A DNA stretch of 64,000 bases. It comes from an uncultured delta proteobacterium. Its GTDB lineage: Bacteria > Myxococcota_A > Polyangia > Palsa-1104. Where the stretch lies: NCBI GenBank assembly GCA_963785725.1, contig CAWAWS010000006.1, positions 192,001-256,000 of the forward strand. The letters run 5' to 3'. The notes below the pieces were generated by a model, which was given only the letters and a program-made list of their open reading frames with translations, did not search any database and was not told the origin of the DNA. Made by a program: the position numbers and the translations under genes. Positions 20,761 through 44,770 of the stretch are shown here, one piece after another; position 1 is the stretch's first letter; each line of letters begins with the position of its first letter.

Positions 20761-20805
20761 TCCGCCGCTCGGCGAACGCGCCGAGCCGCCATGACGAGCA
20801 CTTCG

Positions 20806-20839
20806 AGCCCCATCGCGAAAGCGGTGGGGCTTTTTTTTT
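20806..20839 (+). terminator. Intrinsic terminator ending the ribosomal superoperon
   Basis: AGCCCCATCGC-gaaa-GCGGTGGGGCT followed by a T run. Confidence 0.9.
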
Positions 20840-20884
20840 GCCCGAAAGTTTGCGTAGCGCCCGTCGCGGGGTTGGAATCAGGCC

Positions 20885-21235
20885 GTGGGGCTGCTCATCG
20901 GGTTGACGCTGGCGTCGGCGGCGCTGTTGGTCGTGTTGCGCCTGGCGGCGCGTTCACCGTCGCTGACGGCGGGCATGCGCGTCGTCGGGCGGCTGACGCT
21001 GGAGCCGCGGCGGTCGATCTATCTGGTCGAGGTCGGTGGTCGCTGCCTGGTGGTGGGCGTGGGCGAGGGGCCGATGGCGCTGCTGAGCGAGCTGCCCGAG
21101 CTTCCGGCGGCGGGGACGACGAACGTCGCGCCGTCCGAGGCGCTGGCGCGGCCGGAGCGGTGCTGGCCGGCCGTCGACGATTGTCGCCGCGCGTGGCGGC
21201 GAGTCATCCACGGCGGCAGCGGAGACGGCGCGTGA
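20885..21235 (+). CDS. FliO-like export-gate assembly protein (divergent)
   Basis: N-terminal TM helix, then MRVVGRLTLEPRRSIYLVEVGGRCLVVGVGEGPMALLSEL, the FliO pattern; lies upstream of the fliP-like gene. Confidence 0.7.
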   Translation: MGLLIGLTLASAALLVVLRLAARSPSLTAGMRVVGRLTLEPRRSIYLVEVGGRCLVVGVGEGPMALLSELPELPAAGTTNVAPSEALARPERCWPAVDDCRRAWRRVIHGGSGDGA

Positions 21236-21861
21236 AGGACCTGGGCGCCTGGGTGACGCTGCTCGTGGCCGTGCCGTTCGCGATCGTGGTCGCCGGCGCG
21301 TTCCTGAAGTTCGCGGTGGTGCTGGCGATCTTGCGGCGCGCGCTCGGCGGCTCGGCGCTGCCGCCGGCGTCGGTGGCGGCGGGCTTGGCGCTGTTGTTCG
21401 CGCTCTTCGTGACGGCGCCCGTCGCGCAGCGCGTGTGGGACGCAGCGCAGGCGGGCGCGCGCAAGGGAGATGCGACGGCCGCGGCCACGGCAGCCGCCGG
21501 CACGCTCGAGCCCGTGCGCGAGTTCTTGGCGCGCCACGCGCCGGCGCGCGAGCGGCAGAGCTTCCTCGAGCTGCAGCGGCAGCTGCGCCCGGCGGCCGAG
21601 CGCGCGGCGGTGAGCGACACCGATCTCGTCGTGCTGGCGCCGGCGTTCGCGACGGCGGAGCTGAAGTCGGCCTTCGAGATCGGCTTCTTGCTGTTCCTGC
21701 CGTTCCTCGTGATCGAGCTGTTGACGGCGATGGTGCTGACCTCGCTCGGCATGAACACGGTGGCGCCGGAGATGGTGTCGCTGCCGTTCAAGCTGCTGCT
21801 GTTCGTGCTCGCCGACGGTTGGCACCTGCTCTTTCGCGGGCTCATTTTGGGCTACACGTGA
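21232..21861 (+). CDS. FliP/SctR-like type III export gate protein (divergent)
   Basis: GTG overlapping the upstream stop; AFLKFAVVLAILRRALG..PP, LAPAFATAELKSAFEIGFLLFLPFLVIELL, SLPFKLLLFVLADGW. Confidence 0.9.
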   Translation: MKDLGAWVTLLVAVPFAIVVAGAFLKFAVVLAILRRALGGSALPPASVAAGLALLFALFVTAPVAQRVWDAAQAGARKGDATAAATAAAGTLEPVREFLARHAPARERQSFLELQRQLRPAAERAAVSDTDLVVLAPAFATAELKSAFEIGFLLFLPFLVIELLTAMVLTSLGMNTVAPEMVSLPFKLLLFVLADGWHLLFRGLILGYT

Positions 21862-22124
21862 CGGCGCTGGCGTCGGCGCTGCGCGAGGCGCTGCTGCTGC
21901 TCGTGACGCTGGCGCTGCCGCCGCTCGGCGCCGTGCTGCTCGTGGGCGTGGCGTCGGCGCTGTTGCAGACGGTGACGCAGGTGCGCGAACGGACGCTGTC
22001 GACGGTGCCGCGCATCGCGGCCGCGCTCGTGGCGCTGGCGCTGGCGGGGCCGTGGATCGGCGCGCGGCTGACGGCGTTCATGCGCGCGGTGCTGGAGGCC
22101 GTGCCGTCGCTCGGGCATTCGTGA
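21858..22124 (+). CDS. FliQ/SctS-like export gate protein (divergent)
   Basis: GTGA overlap; 88 aa; LREALLL...LLQTVTQVRERTLSTVPRI...AGPWI. Confidence 0.85.
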   Translation: MTALASALREALLLLVTLALPPLGAVLLVGVASALLQTVTQVRERTLSTVPRIAAALVALALAGPWIGARLTAFMRAVLEAVPSLGHS

Positions 22125-22819
22125 CAGCAGGCACGGTGACGACGGGGACGGCGGCGGCGTTCGCGGCCGCGCGCATGGTGCCGCTGGCGCTGGTGGCGAC
22201 GCCGCTGACGGGCCGCGCGTGGCCGGCGCGCCTCGTGGTCGCGGCGCTGCTCGTCGCCGGCACGACGCCGATCGTGCTGCAGCAGTCGCCGATGACGGGC
22301 TGGACCACGGAGCCGCTCGTCGGGCTGGCGCTCGGGCTCGTCGCGGCGCTGCCGTTCGCGGCGGCCGAGGCGGCGGGCGCGCTCATCGACGCCGGGATCC
22401 AGCCGTGGCGAGCGCGCGCGTCGACGCGCCCGGGGCCGCTGGCGGACGCCTACGCGCTCTTGGCGTTGGCGCTGTTCGCCGCGCTCGACGGTCCGGCGGC
22501 GACGTTGCGCGCGGCGCTCGGCAGCTACGTCGCCTGGCCGTCGGGCGCGCGGCCGACCGATGCGGAGCTGCTGGCGATCGGCGCCCGGCTCGTCGCCACG
22601 GCCGCGGAGCTGGCGGCCCCGGCGTTGGCGGCGCTGCTGCTCGCGGACCTGGCGCTGGCGCTCGTGGCGCGCGCGCAGCCGGCGTTGGCGCGCGCGGTCG
22701 ACGCCGCGCCGTTGCGCACGTTGGCGGCGCTGCTGGTGCTGGCGGGCGGCGTCTACGCGACTGCGCGCGCGCTCGGCCCGTCGCTCGAGGCGGCGGCGAC
22801 GCTGCCTCGGCTGCGCTGA
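22121..22819 (+). CDS. FliR/SctT-like export gate protein (highly divergent)
   Basis: GTGA overlap; hydrophobic; LVGLALGLVAALPFAAAEAAGALID and ELAAPALAALLLADLALALVARAQP match FliR/SctT segments. Confidence 0.75.
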   Translation: MTAGTVTTGTAAAFAAARMVPLALVATPLTGRAWPARLVVAALLVAGTTPIVLQQSPMTGWTTEPLVGLALGLVAALPFAAAEAAGALIDAGIQPWRARASTRPGPLADAYALLALALFAALDGPAATLRAALGSYVAWPSGARPTDAELLAIGARLVATAAELAAPALAALLLADLALALVARAQPALARAVDAAPLRTLAALLVLAGGVYATARALGPSLEAAATLPRLR

Positions 22820-22904
22820 ACGCGATGCGTCGTGAACGTTTTGCGCGCTGTCGCGAGGCGTGGCTGCGATCGCGCTATTGCCCATCGTGCTACGCTGACG
22901 ACGG

Positions 22905-23570
22905 ATGCGTCTCGTCGCTGCGATCGGGTTGCTGCTGGTGACCGCGCGCACGACGATGGCCGATCCGCAGCCGCCGCAAACGCCGACCGTCGCGCCCGCG
23001 CCCTGGATCTGGCCCGACGAGGATGACCCGAAGCTGGCGCGCGGCGCCGCGCAACGGCCGCGCGACTGGCTGCACGTCACCCATGACGTCCCGCGCTTTG
23101 CCCTCAGCTATCGACTGCTGTGGACGGCCAGCCTCACCGGCGGCAAGCTGCCCTTCGACGTCGGCGAGCTCGAGTATTTCCCGGTGTCCAACCTGATCCG
23201 CTTCGGCGTCGAGGGCGAGCTCGGCTGGGCCGGCGGCACCTACGGCCAGTGGTACACGCTCTTCGGCGCCACGCTCGGCCTGCAATACCCGGCGCGCGTC
23301 ACGCCGTTCCTCGAGGGCCGCTTCGTCGCCGGCCTCTCTGGCGGCAGCTACCTCGGCCAGAGCGTCTTCAGCTGGATGTACCAAGGCGGCCTCGAAGGCG
23401 GCGCCGAGATCTACTACGCGCGGCGCTTCTACGTGTCGCTCGCCATCGGCTGGGTGCATCCGGTGTATGCGGCCGTCGACGTCGCGGCGCTGATGGAAAA
23501 GCCGGCCAAGATCATCCATAAGAGCCTCAGCGACGACACCTTCACGTTCAAGATCGGGCTCGGCCTATGA
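22905..23570 (+). CDS. Exported protein, probable small outer-membrane beta-barrel
   Basis: Signal-peptide-like N-terminus, Pro-rich linker, alternating aromatic/Gly beta-strands, C-terminal strand TFTFKIGLGL. Confidence 0.6.
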   Translation: MRLVAAIGLLLVTARTTMADPQPPQTPTVAPAPWIWPDEDDPKLARGAAQRPRDWLHVTHDVPRFALSYRLLWTASLTGGKLPFDVGELEYFPVSNLIRFGVEGELGWAGGTYGQWYTLFGATLGLQYPARVTPFLEGRFVAGLSGGSYLGQSVFSWMYQGGLEGGAEIYYARRFYVSLAIGWVHPVYAAVDVAALMEKPAKIIHKSLSDDTFTFKIGLGL

Positions 23571-24523
23571 GCGGGCCGCTCTCGCCCTCGCCGCGACGGC
23601 TGCGCGAGGCGCGGGCGCGCGGCGACGTGGCGCATGCGCCGCTCTTGTCGACGACGGCGGCGCTGGCGGCGGCGGCGCTGGCGATCGTCTGGACGGCGCC
23701 GTCGGCGGCGGCGCGGCTGGTGGCGTTGGCGCGCGCGGCCTTTGGCGGCGCCGAGTCAGCGACCGCGTTGTCGGCGACGGCGCTGGCGACGCTCGCGCTG
23801 CTGTTCGCGCCTGTCGCCGCGGCGGCTTTCTTGGCGGCGGTCGTCGCCGGCCTCGCGCAAACGCGCTTTGCGCTCGCGTGGGGCGCGCTCGGTCGGCGGA
23901 CGCGCGGTGACGACGAGCCGCTGCCGCTCATTGGCTGGGTGGCGGCCGCGGCGACGGCGTTGGCGGCGTTGACGTGCGCGCGCGCGGCGCTGGCGGCGTT
24001 GGCGCGCAGCGACGGCACGAGCGCGGCGTTGACGGCGGCAGCGACGGCGTTGGCGGCCTTCGTCCCGCGCGCGCTGACGTTGTTGGCGCTCGGCGGCGTC
24101 GGCGAGCTGGTGCTGCGGCAGGCGCGGCTGACGGCGTCGCTGGCGATGACGCGCGCCGAGCGCGAGCGCGAGCGACGCGAGGACGAGGGCGATCCGCGGC
24201 TGCGTGCCGAGCAGCGCCGGCGCCAGCGCGCGCTCGGCCGCGACGGGCTCGCCGACGAGCTGGCGCGCGCGCAGGTCGTCGTCACCGCCGAGGGCGTGGC
24301 GGTGGCGCTGCGCTTCGTCGACGGCGCGGCGCGCGTGGCGGTCGCCTCGGGCGACGATCGCCTGCGCGCCCAGCGGCTGACGGCGATCGCGCGTCGCCTC
24401 GGTCTGCCCGTGCGCGCCGACGACGAGCTGGCGCTGGCCCTGTCGGCGCTGCCGCCCAATAGTCTCCTGACACCACGGTGGCAGCAACGTGCACAGGCGG
24501 CGTTGCGATCGCGTCGACGCTGA
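23567..24523 (+). CDS. FlhB/SctU-like export switch protein (divergent, no NPTH)
   Basis: N-terminal SPRRLREARARGDVA, TM region, LAMTRAERERERREDEGDPRLRAEQRRR, then AQVVVTAEGVAVALRF and IARRLGLPV. Confidence 0.8.
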   Translation: MSGPLSPSPRRLREARARGDVAHAPLLSTTAALAAAALAIVWTAPSAAARLVALARAAFGGAESATALSATALATLALLFAPVAAAAFLAAVVAGLAQTRFALAWGALGRRTRGDDEPLPLIGWVAAAATALAALTCARAALAALARSDGTSAALTAAATALAAFVPRALTLLALGGVGELVLRQARLTASLAMTRAERERERREDEGDPRLRAEQRRRQRALGRDGLADELARAQVVVTAEGVAVALRFVDGAARVAVASGDDRLRAQRLTAIARRLGLPVRADDELALALSALPPNSLLTPRWQQRAQAALRSRRR

Positions 24524-27831: not shown

Positions 27832-30518
27832 AAAAGGCGCTACCATTGCGGGTCGTGCAGCCGCCGTCCGTCGTCATCGCCGCCAACCCGTACGAGGCCG
27901 AGCTGTGCCGGCGAGCGCTCGTCGACACCGGCCTGCAAGTGCTCGTGGCCGACGGTGGCGAAGGCGCGCTCGAGATGGTCCTTAAGACGCGTCCACTGGT
28001 GCTGGTGGTGGCGCTTGGCCTCCTCGACGTCGATTCGCTCGATCTCGTGCGCGATGTGCGTATCGGCGACTCCAAGCTGCCCATTTTCCTGCTCGGCGAT
28101 CGCGAAGGCGAAGTGCGCGACGAGGATGCTGCGGCGCGGCTGGGTGCGACGCGGCTGTTCTTGCGGCCGATCGAGATCGACGCGCTGGCCGACGCCATCG
28201 AGAAGCGCGCGGTCGAGGCCGAAATTCACGACGAGGTGTCGGAGGCGATCGAGGAATTCAGCGTGCGGCCGCCGACGATCGATGCGGCGCCGCTGGTCGA
28301 GGAGTCGATCGTCGAGCTGGAGGCTGATTACGGCGACGACGAGTCGGACGACGAGCCGCTGAACGCGCCGCCGCAGCGCGTGCCGCGCGAGCCGACGCAG
28401 GTGCTCGGGCGCGACAGCGAGCCGGTCGCGCCGAGCTACGCGCGCGACGCGGTGCGGTCGGACGACGGGCTGCGCGGCGAGGCGCGCGCTTCGTTCGATG
28501 GACTGCGCGCCGCCGGTGCGCGCGATGCCCACGATGGCGGTCGCGATGCGCGCGATGGCGGTCGCGAAGCGCGCGATGGCGGTCGCGAAGCGCGTGACGC
28601 CGGCGGCGAGCGCGACGCGAACGGCACGGCGCGCACGGAGTTGGCGAGCGGCCGGCCGTCCAATGCGGGCAACAGCGACGGGCGCGCGTCGCTGCCGACC
28701 GAGACGGTGCCGCTGCGCGTGGAGCTGAAGGCGCCGTCGTCGGTGACGCTGACGGAGCCGCTGTTGCGCGCCGATGACGCGCTCGATGGCGTCGGCTTGC
28801 AGTCGCTGGTCGGCTCGCCCGATTTCGTACGCCGCGGCGAGCGTCCGGTCGACGCCGCCGACGCAGGCGCGCGTACGGCCGACGGCGAGCGCGCGGTCAA
28901 TCGCGGCGCCAGCAATCGCGCGGCCGTGACGAATCTCGCGGCGGGCGAGCGCCTCGCCACGAAGGACTATGCGGCGAGCGATCGCGCGGGCAGGGCCCCT
29001 CGCGCGACGGGCGAGCGCGCCGACGACGCGCACGGCGACGGCGAGCGTGGGCGAACGGAGTTCGACGAGCGCGGCAGCTTCGCGCGTCGCCTCGAGAACG
29101 AGCTGTCGGCGGCCGAGCGGCGCCTTTTTCCCAACACGCCGTCGACGGCGAGCGGTCGCGCCGAGCGGTACGAAGACGCGCTCGGCGACATCGATCTCGA
29201 CGCGCTCGGCATCGACACGATTCCCGGCATCGGCGCCGACGCGTTCGAAGGCATCGAGCCGCGCAACGGCAAGCCGCGCGCGACGTCGCAAGCGACGCCG
29301 GAGCCGCCGATCGTCAACAGCGGTGCGCGCGCCGACGCCATCGATCGACGCGCCGACGCCGTCGAGCCGCGCGGCCACATCGACGATCGCGCCGCGCGTC
29401 CGCCGCTGCCCGACGACGAAGGCGATCTCGCCGAAGCCGACCTGGCCACGCTCGTCGCCGCGCTGCATTCGGGCGGCTTCTCGGGCGCGCTGACGCTCGG
29501 ACGCGGCGACGGCGAGAAGACGCTCTTCTTCGACGATGGCCTGCTCGTCGGTGCGCGCTCGATGTTCGTGCACGATCGCCTGGCCGACCTGCTCGTGCGC
29601 GAGGGCACCATCGGCCGCGAGGCGCAGACGCGCGTGCGCGACATCGCGGACGGGGGCCGTCGCGCGGCGCTGCAGCTGGTCGAGCGCGGGCTCATCAAGT
29701 CGAGCGAGCTGTTCGCTGTTTTGCGCCGCCACGTCGAGGAGATCTTCTTCTCCTGCTTTGCCTGGGAGCGCGGTCATTATCGGTTGGGGCGCGAGCAGTC
29801 GGCGCCGGAAGATCGCGTGCGCATGGGGAGCCATCCGTGGGCGCTGGTCGTCGAGGGTGTGCGGCGGAAATACAGCCTCGAGCGGCTGGTCGAGCGTGTC
29901 GGCCCGCCCGAGACGGTGTTGACGCCGACGACGGCGCTGACGCGTGCGCTCGAGGACTGCGCGCTGACGCCGCCCGAGCGCGATCGCGCCGAGTTGCTCG
30001 ACGGCGAGCGTTCGTTGGCCGAGCTGCAGCTGGGCGCCGTCGGTGCGCCGCTGGCCGAGGCGGGCTTGTATGCGCTGGCGTGGGGCCTCATCGCCGTCGG
30101 CGCCGCGCGTTTCGACGGCGACGAGCCGGTGGCGGGCGTCGGCGTGCGCGCCGTGCCGACGCTGGTGACGACGTCGTACGATCGCCGCCGCCGGCCGCGT
30201 CCGCTCGAGCGCGCGCGCGATCGCGATGCCGACCGTGCCGTCGACAAAGAGCGCGTCCTCGCCAAGCGCGCGCAAGTGCAAGACGGTGACTATTTTGCCG
30301 TGCTCGGGTTGGCGCGGGATGCATCGCCGCACGAGGTGGCGCGGGCGTTCGAGCGGCTGAAGCGCGAATATGCGCCCGAGCGCTTCGCCGAGCCGTTGCG
30401 CGCGGAGCTGGCGTCGGCGTTGGCGGAGATCAGCGCCGTCCTCGACGAGGCCCACCGCGTGCTTGCCGACGACCGCGTGCGCAAGAGCTATCGCGACCAC
30501 CTGCCGCCGCCGGCCTGA
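27828..30518 (+). CDS. Degenerate receiver domain + long disordered linker + DUF4388-like + C-terminal DnaJ-like domain protein
   Basis: CheY-like N-terminus; GDLAEADLATLVAALHSGGFSGALTL..GEKTLFFDDG (DUF4388-like); DYFAVLGL..EVARAFERL..YAPERF..AHRVLADD..RKSY (J-like). Confidence 0.75.
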   Translation: MKKALPLRVVQPPSVVIAANPYEAELCRRALVDTGLQVLVADGGEGALEMVLKTRPLVLVVALGLLDVDSLDLVRDVRIGDSKLPIFLLGDREGEVRDEDAAARLGATRLFLRPIEIDALADAIEKRAVEAEIHDEVSEAIEEFSVRPPTIDAAPLVEESIVELEADYGDDESDDEPLNAPPQRVPREPTQVLGRDSEPVAPSYARDAVRSDDGLRGEARASFDGLRAAGARDAHDGGRDARDGGREARDGGREARDAGGERDANGTARTELASGRPSNAGNSDGRASLPTETVPLRVELKAPSSVTLTEPLLRADDALDGVGLQSLVGSPDFVRRGERPVDAADAGARTADGERAVNRGASNRAAVTNLAAGERLATKDYAASDRAGRAPRATGERADDAHGDGERGRTEFDERGSFARRLENELSAAERRLFPNTPSTASGRAERYEDALGDIDLDALGIDTIPGIGADAFEGIEPRNGKPRATSQATPEPPIVNSGARADAIDRRADAVEPRGHIDDRAARPPLPDDEGDLAEADLATLVAALHSGGFSGALTLGRGDGEKTLFFDDGLLVGARSMFVHDRLADLLVREGTIGREAQTRVRDIADGGRRAALQLVERGLIKSSELFAVLRRHVEEIFFSCFAWERGHYRLGREQSAPEDRVRMGSHPWALVVEGVRRKYSLERLVERVGPPETVLTPTTALTRALEDCALTPPERDRAELLDGERSLAELQLGAVGAPLAEAGLYALAWGLIAVGAARFDGDEPVAGVGVRAVPTLVTTSYDRRRRPRPLERARDRDADRAVDKERVLAKRAQVQDGDYFAVLGLARDASPHEVARAFERLKREYAPERFAEPLRAELASALAEISAVLDEAHRVLADDRVRKSYRDHLPPPA
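28532..28594 (+). repeat. In-frame 21-nt tandem repeat x3 (DGGR[DE]AR)
   Basis: CGATGGCGGTCGCGAWGCGCG three times within the linker. Confidence 0.85.
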
Positions 30519-40681: not shown

Positions 40682-43117
40682 GTGCCTCGCCTTCGGCTGG
40701 TAGTCGTGACTGCGCTCTTGCTGGTCCCGGCGCTCGCCAGGGCCGATTTCTTCTCCACCTCGCCCGGGCCGCTGGCTCAGGTCCACGCCAACATCGACAG
40801 CAAGGACCACTGCACCGACTGCCACACGAGCGGACGCGAGCTCGCCGCCGAGAAGTGCATCAAGTGCCACGAGCCGATCGGCGAGCGGCAGCGCGAGCGC
40901 AAAGGCGTGCACGCGTCGCCCAAAGCGCTCGGCAAGCCGTGCGAGCTGTGCCACACCGACCACAAAGGGCGGAACAAGAACATCCTCGGCTTCGAGTTCT
41001 TCGGCGGGCGCGAGAAGTTCGATCACAACCTGCTGACGCCGTTCCAGCTCGAAGGCAAGCATCAGACGACCAAGTGCAACGACTGCCATAAAGACAAGAC
41101 GGCGTCGGGGACGTTCACGTATCTGAAGGCGCCGACGGCGTGCGCCAGCTGCCACAACAATCCGCACGGCGACTTGCACGAGAAGCTGCGCAACTGCGAG
41201 CGCTGCCACGATGCGCGCTCGTGGAAGATGAAGGACGACGCGCAGTTCGATCACGACCGCGACACGCGCTATCCGCTCGAGAAGAAGCACGAGCCGGTCA
41301 AGTGCGCGGCCTGCCACGCGACGACGAAGTCGGGGCAGCCGCCGAATGCGAAAGCGCCGATTCCGGCGCTGACTCCGGCCGGCTATCAGAAGATGACGTT
41401 CCGCTGGCCGACGTGGGGCTTCGATTGCCAGCCGTGCCACGACAACGTGCACGGGACGTCGCTGTTCGGGACGAAGTCGTGCAAGAGCTGCCACTCGGCC
41501 AAGGTCGAGTTCACCAAGATCTTCTTCGACCACAACAAGCGCACGCGCTTCCCGCTCGACGGTGAGCACGCCGATACCAAGAAGGCGACGTGCTACTCCT
41601 GCCATCCGAAAGAGCTCAAGGGCAAGCCGTCGATGCGCTGCGACGGCTGCCATCAGGACGTGCACAAAGGGCGGTTCGCGAAGGCGTCCAACGGCAACGA
41701 CTGCGGCAGCTGCCACACGGCGGTCAATTGGCCGACGGATTTGAAGTTCGATCACAACACGCGCACCAAGTTCCCGCTCACGGGCGCGCACGCCAACGCC
41801 GATTGCCGCGCCTGCCATCGCGGCAAAGGGCCGGCCGAGTGGGAGAACGTCTCGTCGCTGGTGACGCGCTCGGGGCGCGAGCAAAAGGTCGCCTGCATGG
41901 GCTGCCACCAGCACGAGAACGTGCACAAGAAGCAGTATCCGAACGAGCGCTGCCTCGAGTGCCACAAGATGGCCGGCATCGTCGACACCAAGCCGCGCGC
42001 CATCAACGAGTTCCACGGGCCCAACTCGCGCTTCCCGCTGACCGAAGGGCACAAAGGCGTCGCCTGCGAGAAGTGCCATCCCGGCAACGTCTTCAAGAAG
42101 GACATGACGCTGCAGTGCGGTCCGACGTGCCATCCCGACGAGCTGCACAAAGGGACGCTCGGCAAAGACTGCTTGAGCTGCCACTCGGGCGGCCGGTGGG
42201 AAGCGCGCCTCTTCGATCACGACACGAAGACGAAGTGGCCGCTCGTCGGCAACCACAAGGACGTCACCTGCGAGGCCTGCCATCCGCGGCGCGACTTCGC
42301 CAACAACCGCGGCAAGAGCACCACTTGCTACAACTGCCACTCCAAGGACGACGCGCACAACGGGCAGCTCGGCCATCGCTGCGAGACATGCCATTCGCCC
42401 GACGGCAAAGTGGCGTTCGACCACAACGATCCCGAGTTCAGCGACTGGCCGCTCCTCGGCAAGCACAAGAAGGTCAAGTGCAACGAGTGCCATAAGTCGA
42501 TCGAGTTCAAGCCGACGCCGCGCGAGTGCGGCGGCTGCCACGGCGAGCCCGCCGTGCATCGCGGCCAGCTCGGCACGTTGTGCGCGTCCTGCCACGTCAA
42601 CGACGACTGGAAGATCATCCACACCGGCCACGACGTGCCGACGCCGCGCTTCGGCGGCGCGCACGACCGCGTGCCGTGTGTGTCGTGCCATCCGGGCGGC
42701 CGCTTGCTCGGCGGCACGGGGCAGCTGTGCATCACCTGCCATCGCAACGACGACATCCACCACAACGGGCTCGGGCCGCGCTGCGGCGAGTGCCACACGC
42801 AGCAGTCGTGGGCGGCGGCGCACTTCGAGCACACGCGCGTCGGCTGCGAGCTGACCGGCAGCCATCGCCTGTTGCCGTGCGTGGGCTGCCACATCGGCGG
42901 CAACTTCGTCGCGCTGGCGACGGACTGCGTCGCCTGCCACCGTAAAGACGCCGTGCGCGGCGGTGCCGCATACGCCGCGTCTCTCAAACAGGCCGGCAAT
43001 GCGGCCATCATCGCGACTCACGCCATGTTCCCTCAGTGCGGCAGCTGCCACAACACGATCTTCTGGGGAACGACGTCTTCGCGTCTCGCCGGCGGTCGCG
43101 AGTCGGTGTGCCGATGA
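40682..43117 (+). CDS. Periplasmic 30-heme c-type cytochrome built of ten triheme repeats
   Basis: Sec signal peptide (ALARA|DFF); manual count 29 CxxCH + 1 CxxxCH (CGPTCH); repeating FDH..[FYW]PLxGxH..CxxCH..CxxCH..H..CxxCH unit. Confidence 0.95.
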   Translation: MPRLRLVVVTALLLVPALARADFFSTSPGPLAQVHANIDSKDHCTDCHTSGRELAAEKCIKCHEPIGERQRERKGVHASPKALGKPCELCHTDHKGRNKNILGFEFFGGREKFDHNLLTPFQLEGKHQTTKCNDCHKDKTASGTFTYLKAPTACASCHNNPHGDLHEKLRNCERCHDARSWKMKDDAQFDHDRDTRYPLEKKHEPVKCAACHATTKSGQPPNAKAPIPALTPAGYQKMTFRWPTWGFDCQPCHDNVHGTSLFGTKSCKSCHSAKVEFTKIFFDHNKRTRFPLDGEHADTKKATCYSCHPKELKGKPSMRCDGCHQDVHKGRFAKASNGNDCGSCHTAVNWPTDLKFDHNTRTKFPLTGAHANADCRACHRGKGPAEWENVSSLVTRSGREQKVACMGCHQHENVHKKQYPNERCLECHKMAGIVDTKPRAINEFHGPNSRFPLTEGHKGVACEKCHPGNVFKKDMTLQCGPTCHPDELHKGTLGKDCLSCHSGGRWEARLFDHDTKTKWPLVGNHKDVTCEACHPRRDFANNRGKSTTCYNCHSKDDAHNGQLGHRCETCHSPDGKVAFDHNDPEFSDWPLLGKHKKVKCNECHKSIEFKPTPRECGGCHGEPAVHRGQLGTLCASCHVNDDWKIIHTGHDVPTPRFGGAHDRVPCVSCHPGGRLLGGTGQLCITCHRNDDIHHNGLGPRCGECHTQQSWAAAHFEHTRVGCELTGSHRLLPCVGCHIGGNFVALATDCVACHRKDAVRGGAAYAASLKQAGNAAIIATHAMFPQCGSCHNTIFWGTTSSRLAGGRESVCR

Positions 43118-44770
43118 TCCGTCGGCTCCTGCGCTTCGTGCCGCTGCTGTTGGTCTTGTTGCCGACGGCGGCGCGCGCGCAGGATCTGAAAGATCGCTTC
43201 AACATCAAGCTGTCGTTGACCGGCATGTACGAGACGGAGCAAGAGGGCGAGCTGCCGGCGGCCTATGCGCGCACGCAGCCGACGACCGGCGGCAACGGCG
43301 TGGGCCAGGTGTCGTCGCCGTTCCAGCTCGGCTACGGCGAGCTGCGCGCGGTCATCGACGGGCGGCGGCTGCCCGGCAACTTCGATCTGCACATCGACGC
43401 GCGCGTACGGCTGACCGGCCCCTACTCGATCGACGACGCCACCGTCGGCAATCAGCCCATCACCGCCCGCGGCTACTTGGGCGGCAGCGAATACGACCTG
43501 CGTTCGGCCTGGGTGCGACGACGCGGCGAGAGCTGGGACTTCGGCCTCGGCCGCATGATCGTGTCCGAGGCCGACGCCCTGCGCATCGACGGCGCGCGAT
43601 TATGGTGGCGCATGGCGAAACACTGGGACGCCAGCTTGTACGCCGGCGGCTACGGCGATCCCTATTCGCGCTCGCTCAACGACGACTATTCGGGCGGCTT
43701 CGCCGCGGCCGGCGGCGGCGACGCGACGTACACGTACGATAAGATCTGGGGCTCGTTCAGCGTCAACGGCGCCTACTTCAGCGGCAACGACGACGGCGGC
43801 CCGATCGTCATCAACGCCGACGGCTCCATCGCCCCCGGCAAGCCGACGCGCGAGAAGCCGCGCACCTGGCTCACGTGGACCGACTTCATCCGCATCGCGT
43901 CGTGGCTCGACCTGTTCACTGATGTCGTCGTCGACGCGTCGGGCGAGGCGGGCGCGCAGCTCACGCGGCTCGACGCGCTGGCCACGATTCGCGCCGGCTC
44001 GCACCTGACGTTCCGCCTCGGCTACGATCACCTGTCGGCGTTCGCGATCGAAATGTGGCTGACCAAGCTGCTCACCGATCGCTCGCAGGTCGTCGCCAAC
44101 ACCATCGAGAACAACTTGACGGTCGAGCGCACCTCGCGCGACGAAGGCCGCGGCCAGGTCGATTCTCGCGTTCGGCAAATTCTCGGTCAACGGCGAAGGC
44201 CGCGTGCGCAAACGCGCGCTCGTCTCGCTCACCGACGACACGCAGTTCACCAACCAGGGCAAACAGGTCGCGCCCGGCTTCGCCTGGGACGCGACGCTCG
44301 GCGTGCACGATCGCGGCTCGCTCGCCGGCTTTCGCGAGGGCTTGTGGGCGATGTACTTGAGCGACTATCGCGCCAACAGCTTCCTCGTCGGCTTCGACCT
44401 CGGCCGCAGCTTCTGGGACGAGAAGCTCACCATCGACTTCGCGTTCTTGTACGCCAAGACCAAAGACGACGACTCGGGCAAAGGCACGCCCGTCGCCAAC
44501 ATGCCGACCTTGCCCATCGCCTGCAACACGGCGACGTATCTGACGATCAACTCGACCTGCTACGGCACGCGCAACGGCGCCGAGTACGAGACCGGCATCA
44601 CCATCGGCGGCTCGCCGTTCAACCACTGGTATGCGTTCGTCGACTATCGGCTCGTCGTCGACAAGACCGACGGCAACATCGCCAACGCCGCGGGCACGAC
44701 GACGCCGGCGCTGCCCGAGCCGACGATCCTGACGCACGTGCTGCTCCTGCGGCTCGAAGCGCGTTACTGA
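43114..44770 (+). CDS. Outer-membrane beta-barrel protein (~551 aa) interrupted by a +1 frameshift at 44163/44164
   Basis: ATGA overlap with the cytochrome; signal peptide (AARA|QDL); amphipathic Trp/Tyr/Gly strands. Removing one T in GATTCTC joins the two ORFs (..GQVDLAFGKFSVNGEGRVRKRAL..) and ends in LLLRLEARY with a terminal aromatic residue. Confidence 0.8.

Follow-up and report, generated by a model that had tools for sequence, protein, structure and literature searches.

A type III export gate among housekeeping genes of a polyangial genome and its scattered, putatively needle-less secretion system

What is a type III export gate doing among housekeeping genes, with no other exporter gene beside it? 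The question is raised by a stretch of 64,000 nucleotides from an uncultured delta proteobacterium of the class Polyangia (contig CAWAWS010000006.1, positions 192,001 to 256,000; here called the window), in which an operon at 20885-24523 encodes homologues of FliO, SctR, SctS, SctT and SctU of type III secretion systems (T3SSs) together with a predicted outer-membrane barrel protein. In T3SSs, FliO aids the assembly of the SctR5S4T1 complex, SctU wraps this gate, SctV and SctJ ring it, and SctQ-SctL-SctN energise export; the gate together with SctV, SctJ, SctQ, SctL and SctN can translocate unfolded proteins through the inner membrane. We consider it highly probable that the operon is the gate of a Myxococcota T3SS whose genes are scattered over the genome, and its sequences indicate that this scattered system is probably a working exporter.

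The gate operon and its distant partners

A first interpretation, made from the letters of the window alone (the sequence-only reading), had described five gate homologues with open frames and 4-nt overlaps between the rplQ terminator and galU-priA, and all of this is borne out: the six frames of the operon, barrel gene included, are open at the positions given then, the overlaps lie at the O/P, P/Q, Q/R and barrel/U junctions, and galU and then priA follow downstream. Hairpins resembling the rplQ terminator are also present in relatives, and the closest named relatives are metagenome-assembled genomes of Polyangia and Myxococcales. The encoded proteins were correctly described as uninterrupted and rich in alanine and leucine, which make up 38-48% of P, Q, R and U as compared to 21-28% of the galU and priA products. 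The P subunit had been judged to be SctR-like, in agreement with its 211.7 bits on PRK12797 (SctR; cut-off 179) and 189.7 bits on TIGR01102, against a lower 165.2 bits on TIGR01103 (FliP). Moreover, the window indeed holds no flhA/sctV, ATPase or ring gene; these are located elsewhere in the genome.

FHIPEP and FliP genes are each present twice in this genome (8.9 Mb, 88% complete). A complete flagellar cluster, located on another contig (C29:29885-67626; motAB, fliL, fliC, flgKL, flgM, fliA, flhF, fliI and fliF), has its own gate, fliO-P-Q-R-flhB-flhA. The second type III set is found at five loci on three contigs, amid housekeeping genes: fliO-sctRST-barrel-sctU, sctV, sctL-sctN, sctQ, and sctJ behind a sigma factor gene (Table 1). 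For each of the scattered copies of sctV, sctL, sctN, sctQ and sctJ, the Sct model gives a better score than the Fli model. These partners at four other loci rule out the orphan, or minimal gate standing alone, that the sequence-only reading had proposed; a gene set elsewhere to which the gate belongs is what that reading had itself named as speaking against it, and in part such a set exists.

Could the operon be a duplicate of the flagellar gate or a spare one, or else a stand-alone CORE complex of flagellar origin, that serves the flagellum or membrane tubes? The presence of FliO and the near-equal scores of sctS and sctU on Fli and Sct models would fit. However, the flagellar cluster has a gate of its own, the window P subunit is not linked to flagellar genes and falls outside the flagellar clade, as does SctN (see below), and the system is present in most of the genomes that lack flagellar FliP. 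A flagellar duplicate is thus ruled out, and the broader proposal is largely refuted and very improbable. FliO had been taken for a mark of flagella, and this does not hold: Myxococcus-type T3SS clusters carry fliO between sctQ and sctR, and FliO has been published for the gate operon of the M. xanthus T3SS (PMC12248157).

The set also differs from a canonical injectisome, no SctC, SctD or SctF having been found in the genome. It forms a complete minimal set of gate, SctV, SctJ, SctQ, SctL and SctN, and extracellular parts were not found: the needle family PF09392 (SctF) has no match in the 88% complete genome, the SctD model hits only FHA-domain proteins, all below the cut-off, and a profile of 17 cluster SctI proteins gave no match (best E 0.92) in this genome, to which the search was confined. 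SctK, SctO, SctP and a stand-alone SctU C-domain (SctU-C) were searched for in the same genome and none was found. The tetratricopeptide repeat (TPR) profile for LcrH-type chaperones matches many unrelated proteins there, and no T3SS-linked chaperone was found. Since the four secretins of the genome lie in type II secretion-like, type IV pilus and Tad contexts, there is no dedicated T3SS secretin among them. Tad pilus genes occur at two loci (C15:212772-221892 and C4:103100-105615), encoding RcpC, FHA-ATPase-like and TadB/C-like proteins, a secretin and a prepilin peptidase; their layout appears Kil-like.

A barrel gene inside a gate operon might suggest a substitute for the secretin. AlphaFold2 with a 102-row homologue alignment predicts an 8-stranded barrel with a predicted local distance difference test (pLDDT) score of 91, for which Foldseek returns NspA as the best match (E 9e-6), and also OmpA; single-sequence folding reached only a pLDDT of 33, and the ESM Atlas offered nothing beyond clusters from Myxococcota and a partial lead to OMP_b-brl. 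Among 61 genomes (the genome of the window and 60 relatives of its class) the family occurs in 20, and in a genome of another family it likewise sits between sctT and sctU. The idea of a secretin substitute was rejected because the predicted fold is narrow and the family is missing from 41/61 genomes, the majority of them with the T3SS. We regard the barrel protein as an accessory. A second copy of the family is encoded at C20:107864-108529, away from T3SS genes.

Table 1. Features of the gate operon (window positions) and of its partner loci (contig:position; C with a number denotes a contig of the same genome)
Feature	Location	Strand	Evidence and remarks
Intrinsic terminator after rplQ	20805..20832	+	12-pair stem and T run; divides ribosomal-protein operon from gate operon
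Putative sigma70-type promoter	20850..20878	+	TTG hexamer, 17 nt, TnnnAT; 6 nt upstream of fliO start
fliO, FliO-family gate-assembly protein	20885..21235	+	PF04347, E 6.8e-12; ortholog of fliO in Myxococcus-type T3SS clusters
sctR (P subunit, FliP family), gate subunit	21232..21861	+	PF00813, E 1.1e-55; PRK12797 over cut-off; tree position; dN/dS 0.28-0.36
sctS (Q, FliQ family), gate subunit	21858..22124	+	PF01313, E 9.6e-21
sctT (R, FliR family), gate subunit, strongly diverged	22121..22819	+	PF01311, E 6.7e-22; 48% Ala+Leu; dN/dS 0.54-0.85
Barrel gene, predicted accessory 8-stranded outer-membrane beta-barrel, NspA/OmpA-like fold	22905..23570	+	No Pfam match; AlphaFold2, Foldseek
sctU (FlhB family), NPTH autocleavage motif absent	23567..24523	+	PF01312, E 1e-33; alignment
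sctV, non-flagellar	C7:204881-206857		642.6 bits vs FlhA 606
sctL-sctN, non-flagellar	C7:481827-479758		SctN 560.8 vs FliI 523.6 bits
sctQ, non-flagellar	C6:325589-326701		SctQ model 115.4, over cut-off
sctJ, non-flagellar	C15:308370-309155		SctJ 134.8 vs FliF 26.6 bits; directly after FliA/WhiG-like sigma gene

Two further regions of the window may be mentioned: behind priA (27843-30518), a response-regulator, DUF4388 and DnaJ-domain protein is syntenic across the family, and at 40682-44770 a large protein is encoded together with its neighbours that is secreted, carries repeats of the CxxCH motif and, judged by eye, resembles multiheme cytochromes.

Ancestry and distribution

As references we used 47 loci on metagenome contigs, picked by an SctN motif that in the alignment of Abby and Rocha occurs only in three Myxococcus and Stigmatella Syst-1 sequences (PMC3459982). 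Syst-1 would, as we infer, correspond to the long T3SS* locus, and the Polyangia set may be orthologous to either the long or the short one. Ten 20-kb clusters share one gene order: sigma factor, sctI, sctJ, a FliG_C-bearing gene, sctL, sctN, sctO, sctP, sctQ, fliO, sctR, S, T, U and a free SctU C-domain, with fliO detected between sctQ and sctR in eight of the ten and a TPR chaperone at the end of the one cluster that was fully annotated. The scattered pieces of the Polyangia retain fragments of this order, and the cluster profiles prefer them to the flagellar copies of the same genome (fliO, E 1.2e-6 against no match; sctQ, 1e-33 against 2e-15; sigma factor, 3e-64 against 1e-22).

The trees point in the same direction. 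In the SctN tree (37 rows), the sequences from Polyangia, from the clusters and from a family of another class (f27) group in a single clade (100/98) that excludes flagella and injectisomes, and the topology tracks genus, family and order. An earlier quick run had only SPI-1-like injectisome references; for the present tree, its three outgroups of F-ATPases were dropped along with 13 rows that were near-duplicates, and four references were added. The SctR tree (72 rows) places the window protein in a Myxococcota group (79/93), separate from the flagellar clade (100/100) and from the injectisome clade (99/96). Since the cluster profiles favour the scattered genes and both trees agree, the Polyangia loci are best read as fragments of a Myxococcus-type cluster. 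To judge from these sequences, the scattered set is a member of the Myxo clade by phylogeny and not by the locus definition, which includes a single cluster and SctI. The kinship to the needle-less Myxococcus T3SS that the sequence-only reading had suspected is thereby supported, whereas its intermediate between flagellum and injectisome is not, as the set nests within the Myxococcota T3SS clade.

How widespread is this arrangement? With copies sorted by hand on score and contig context, non-flagellar SctR was found in 52/61 genomes, the short SctJ in 55 and non-flagellar SctV in about 54; 54 genomes have a T3SS ATPase domain, flagellar and non-flagellar ones being counted together. The system is thereby spread over more than 15 families. 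Flagellar FliP is present in 14 of the 61 genomes, with FlhA on the same contig in 13 of these. Three genomes (98, 97 and 89% complete) lack R, V, J and N all together, and no SctR, SctV, SctJ or SctN-domain match in any of the 61 has an internal stop. Five near-closed genomes have the T3SS pieces on separate contigs or hundreds of kb to Mb apart. The gene rplQ lies 5' of fliO in 12 of 20 gate loci compared, and for f9 and several further families, adjacency is retained by fliO and sctR alone. The single-contig genomes of f27, which we guess at class level to be Bradymonadia, have four loci (fliO-RSTU, V, I-J-K-L-N-O and Q) and retain sctI and sctO. In one genome (G051), sctV and a very diverged fliO-sctR-sctT remain, and no second SctJ, SctN, SctQ or sigma factor was found; this is possibly an even smaller, gate-only form. 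Finally, flagellated families of other classes within the phylum (f25 and f47) have a second, diverged fliO-sctR(-S) that groups with the Myxococcota T3SS.

The set is thus a scattered and reduced variant of a known system, the Myxo non-flagellar T3SS of Abby and Rocha (PMC3459982), or T3SS* (MXAN_2434-2464). It shares with this system the clade by SctN and SctR, the proteins SctRSTUV, N, L, Q and J, and the lack of a needle and of a dedicated secretin. It differs by five or six loci in place of one cluster, by the lack of detected SctI, O, P, D and stand-alone SctU-C, by the lost SctU switch and by the barrel gene before sctU. The T3SS of Bradymonabacteria is needle-less as well, with scattered locus tags (PMC7460792, PMC11509652); in f27, SctI, SctO and the NPTH motif are kept, unlike in the Polyangia order studied. 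Chlamydia also encodes its T3SS at several loci, a scattering that has been tied to constitutive expression (PMC3459982) and that fits the housekeeping-type promoter described below, but its system has a secretin, a needle and a translocon and injects host cells.

Parts of this picture had been noted before. Myxo systems were placed only in the Cystobacterineae, and supplements 1-2 of that study hold no Haliangium or Sorangium system, although its list of excluded systems may mention them (PMC3459982); myxobacterial T3SSs were assigned mainly to Myxococcales (PMC10196010). Against novelty stand one sentence that mentions sctV and sctR for genomes of Polyangia (PMC11509652), the report of FliO in both M. 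xanthus T3SSs and often in Myxococcota, whose supplementary data may list Polyangia loci (PMC12248157), and the widely spaced T3SS locus tags of Bradymonas that are upregulated in predation (PMC7460792). PMC11821767 and PMC9380563 add little. The literature covered, mostly without subscription papers, held no description of a scattered Polyangia system, of an SctU loss series or of a sigma/anti-sigma pair at a Myxo T3SS. The scattered Polyangia form is new, and a function for it is proposed below.

Reduction, selection and transcription

The switch protein SctU seems to have been dismantled step by step. The clusters, f27 and the near-closed genome G044 still have NPTH or a close variant. Alignments show the motif replaced in the genus of the window and in G050, and the whole cytoplasmic domain missing in three other genomes. 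In family f3 no non-flagellar SctU was found: only 2/23 genomes have a match, both flagellar, and none follows sctT in four loci.

Selection has been uneven. Ratios of nonsynonymous to synonymous substitution rates (dN/dS) were estimated by the Nei-Gojobori method with four comparison genomes, dS being underestimated at this GC content. Within the genus they are 0.28 for sctR, 0.19 for sctN, 0.25 for sctV, 0.31 for sctL and 0.42 for sctJ, similar to the references galU (0.17-0.19) and priA (0.36-0.38). For fliO, sctS, sctT, sctU and the barrel gene they amount to 0.5-0.6 in the genus and 0.6-0.9 across genera. With low ratios for the former and high ratios for the latter, the sequences indicate that the core of the T3SS is conserved and the gate periphery relaxed. 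The retained selection proposed in the sequence-only reading therefore holds in so far as all ratios lie below 1 and R, V, N, L and J are constrained; it is not borne out to the same degree for fliO, sctS, sctT and sctU.

A standard promoter scan found no promoter. A TTG-17-TnnnAT element lies 4-6 nt 5' of the fliO start in 10 of 14 regions (10/11 within the order, 0/3 outside), as compared to 0.66% of random 200-nt windows; the pattern had initially been read by eye from five of the regions that were later counted. Genome-wide, TAnnnT peaks 6 nt before ATG (126 of 1827 open reading frames over a background of about 12 in the genome of the window), and the peaks span 6-9 nt. These patterns suggest that the fliO operon has its own leaderless, housekeeping-type promoter beyond the rplQ terminator, and that the genome may produce many leaderless mRNAs. 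A different element, GGTCGAAC, is common to the regions upstream of flgM and fliC in the flagellar cluster and likely is a lineage-specific sigma28 -10 box; by eye it was not seen upstream of the scattered T3SS genes of this genome.

Is the system then no more than a slowly decaying relic? The ancestral T3SS might have broken up and its gate genes might be drifting towards Ala/Leu-rich, GC-driven sequences, with frames that stay open by inertia. For sctT, sctU and fliO, both the high dN/dS and the drift in composition would agree with this, as would the loss of I, O and P and the way in which SctU loses first its motif, then its domain and finally the whole gene. On the other hand, the strong constraint on R, V and N, the matches free of internal stops in 61 genomes, the conserved promoter, the retention in more than 15 families and the all-or-none absence in three genomes all speak against it, and we regard such a relic as unlikely.

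A sigma factor, its small partner and the task of the exporter

The sigma factor gene next to sctJ offers a hint as to what is exported. A FliA-like sigma factor is encoded in 54/61 genomes; 51 of the genomes have both this gene and sctJ, and in 20 of these the two lie about 3.5 kb apart or closer. In all 14 Myxococcus-type clusters that show both genes, a small gene lies directly 5' of the sigma factor gene. Its homologue in the genome of the window is a sixth scattered gene (C17:181034-181393, 119 aa), and homologues occur in 35/61 genomes (E up to 0.001, with a profile that includes this copy). In the flagellum, FliA and FlgM form an export checkpoint, in which a sigma28-family factor is held by a small partner that is released by export. 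Here, too, a sigma28-family factor is paired with a small protein that in the clusters is encoded beside T3SS genes, has a low-complexity N-terminus, with a start much like that of FlgM of the same genome, and a helical C-terminus. The genome carries separate flagellar FliA and FlgM, and, unlike FlgM, the small protein has no match to PF04316 or any other Pfam family; the hhalign probability against FlgM of the genome is 0.7%. The predicted complex of sigma factor and small protein scored 0.85, with 0.02 for the best control; at least 77% of the contacts recur between the runs, the pLDDT of the partner is 67-68, and its N-terminal 50 residues lie outside the predicted interface. The mark of 0.85 is reached by 116/157 solved pairs and by 2/215 mismatches, a calibration that applies only roughly here. 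The model thus supports binding of the small protein to the FliA-like sigma factor, which makes it a candidate exported anti-sigma factor, and suggests a FlgM-like export checkpoint; its export and inhibitory action would follow by analogy from architecture and cluster position. That this protein is a substrate of the T3SS is, taken alone, a tentative proposal.

Taken as a whole, the data are best explained, and we hold this with some confidence, by a needle-less Myxococcota-type T3SS of which the window encodes the gate and four distant loci the other subunits, which likely exports to the periplasm, and whose substrates probably include the sigma-binding small protein. In this mechanism, FliO, SctR, SctS, SctT and SctU would form the export gate and would assemble in the inner membrane with the distantly encoded subunits. 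Because neither a rod, a ruler or a needle nor SctD or a dedicated secretin was found and the SctU switch is lacking, export would end in the periplasm and proceed in one fixed mode. Each fragment would have its own housekeeping-type promoter, and the genes would therefore be free to scatter. In the least certain step, the 119-aa protein would act like FlgM: a working gate would deplete the cytoplasm of this protein, and the sigma factor encoded beside sctJ would turn on.

Several observations weigh against this explanation. The missing parts may be unassembled in a genome that is 88% complete, or too diverged; SctK in particular may have escaped detection through divergence, since an SctK-like frame is visible by eye 5' of sctL in G050. 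The support for the Myxococcota branch of the SctR tree (79) is weak, the gate periphery is under weak constraint, and in f3 no non-flagellar SctU was detected. The small gene was first matched in the genome of the window with an E of only 0.0013, adjoins no T3SS gene in Polyangia and was not detected in the f27 stretches compared. A sigma28-family complex may, we presume, score high by its likeness to the solved FliA-FlgM pair. Moreover, G015, one of the three genomes without R, V, J and N (98% complete), keeps both the sigma factor and the small protein; the pair is thus not strictly dependent on the exporter.

The main rival keeps the scattered machine and gives it the job of T3SS*: prey-lytic effectors would be exported to the periplasm and delivered by a Tad/Kil pilus at contacts with prey, the sigma factor and its partner being mere neighbours. 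The orthology to the Myxococcus-type clusters would fit, as would the requirement of T3SS* together with Kil for prey lysis (PMC12075869, PMC10433427), the upregulation of the Bradymonas genes in predation (PMC7460792), and the Tad cluster (C15:212-224 kb) and Tad secretin (C4) of the genome. On the other hand, neither SctI, SctO, SctP and SctD nor linked LcrH-type chaperones were found in the genome, and no effector was identified there; the co-occurrence of Kil and T3SS* is reportedly restricted to Cystobacterineae (PMC12428579), and the second M. xanthus T3SS plays no part in killing (PMC10196010). We therefore judge this rival to be possible but doubtful. A hand-off of effectors to the Tad pilus is compatible with export of the sigma partner.

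Going beyond the export of the small protein as such, the needle-less T3SS of Myxococcota may at heart be an export-coupled regulatory switch, its Polyangia form persisting to control a FliA-like sigma factor by pumping an anti-sigma factor other than FlgM into the periplasm; this is a speculative idea, to which we give a rather low probability. If it is true, the consequences would reach M. xanthus: the same pair of sigma factor and partner heads the Myxococcus-type clusters, and part of the prey-lysis defect of T3SS* could be due to a lost sigma regulon rather than to effector delivery. Among non-flagellar T3SSs, the Myxo system branches off earliest, and the predicted sigma-binding protein now gives it a first concrete candidate substrate. 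Moreover, across the Polyangia this T3SS is commoner than the flagellum and, scattered and diverged as it is, has been missed by cluster-based detection, so that its reported range changes. Finally, the reduction series, in which the NPTH motif is lost, then the SctU domain, in which SctU itself is undetected, and in which rod and ruler are missing, outlines the minimum for a type III exporter.

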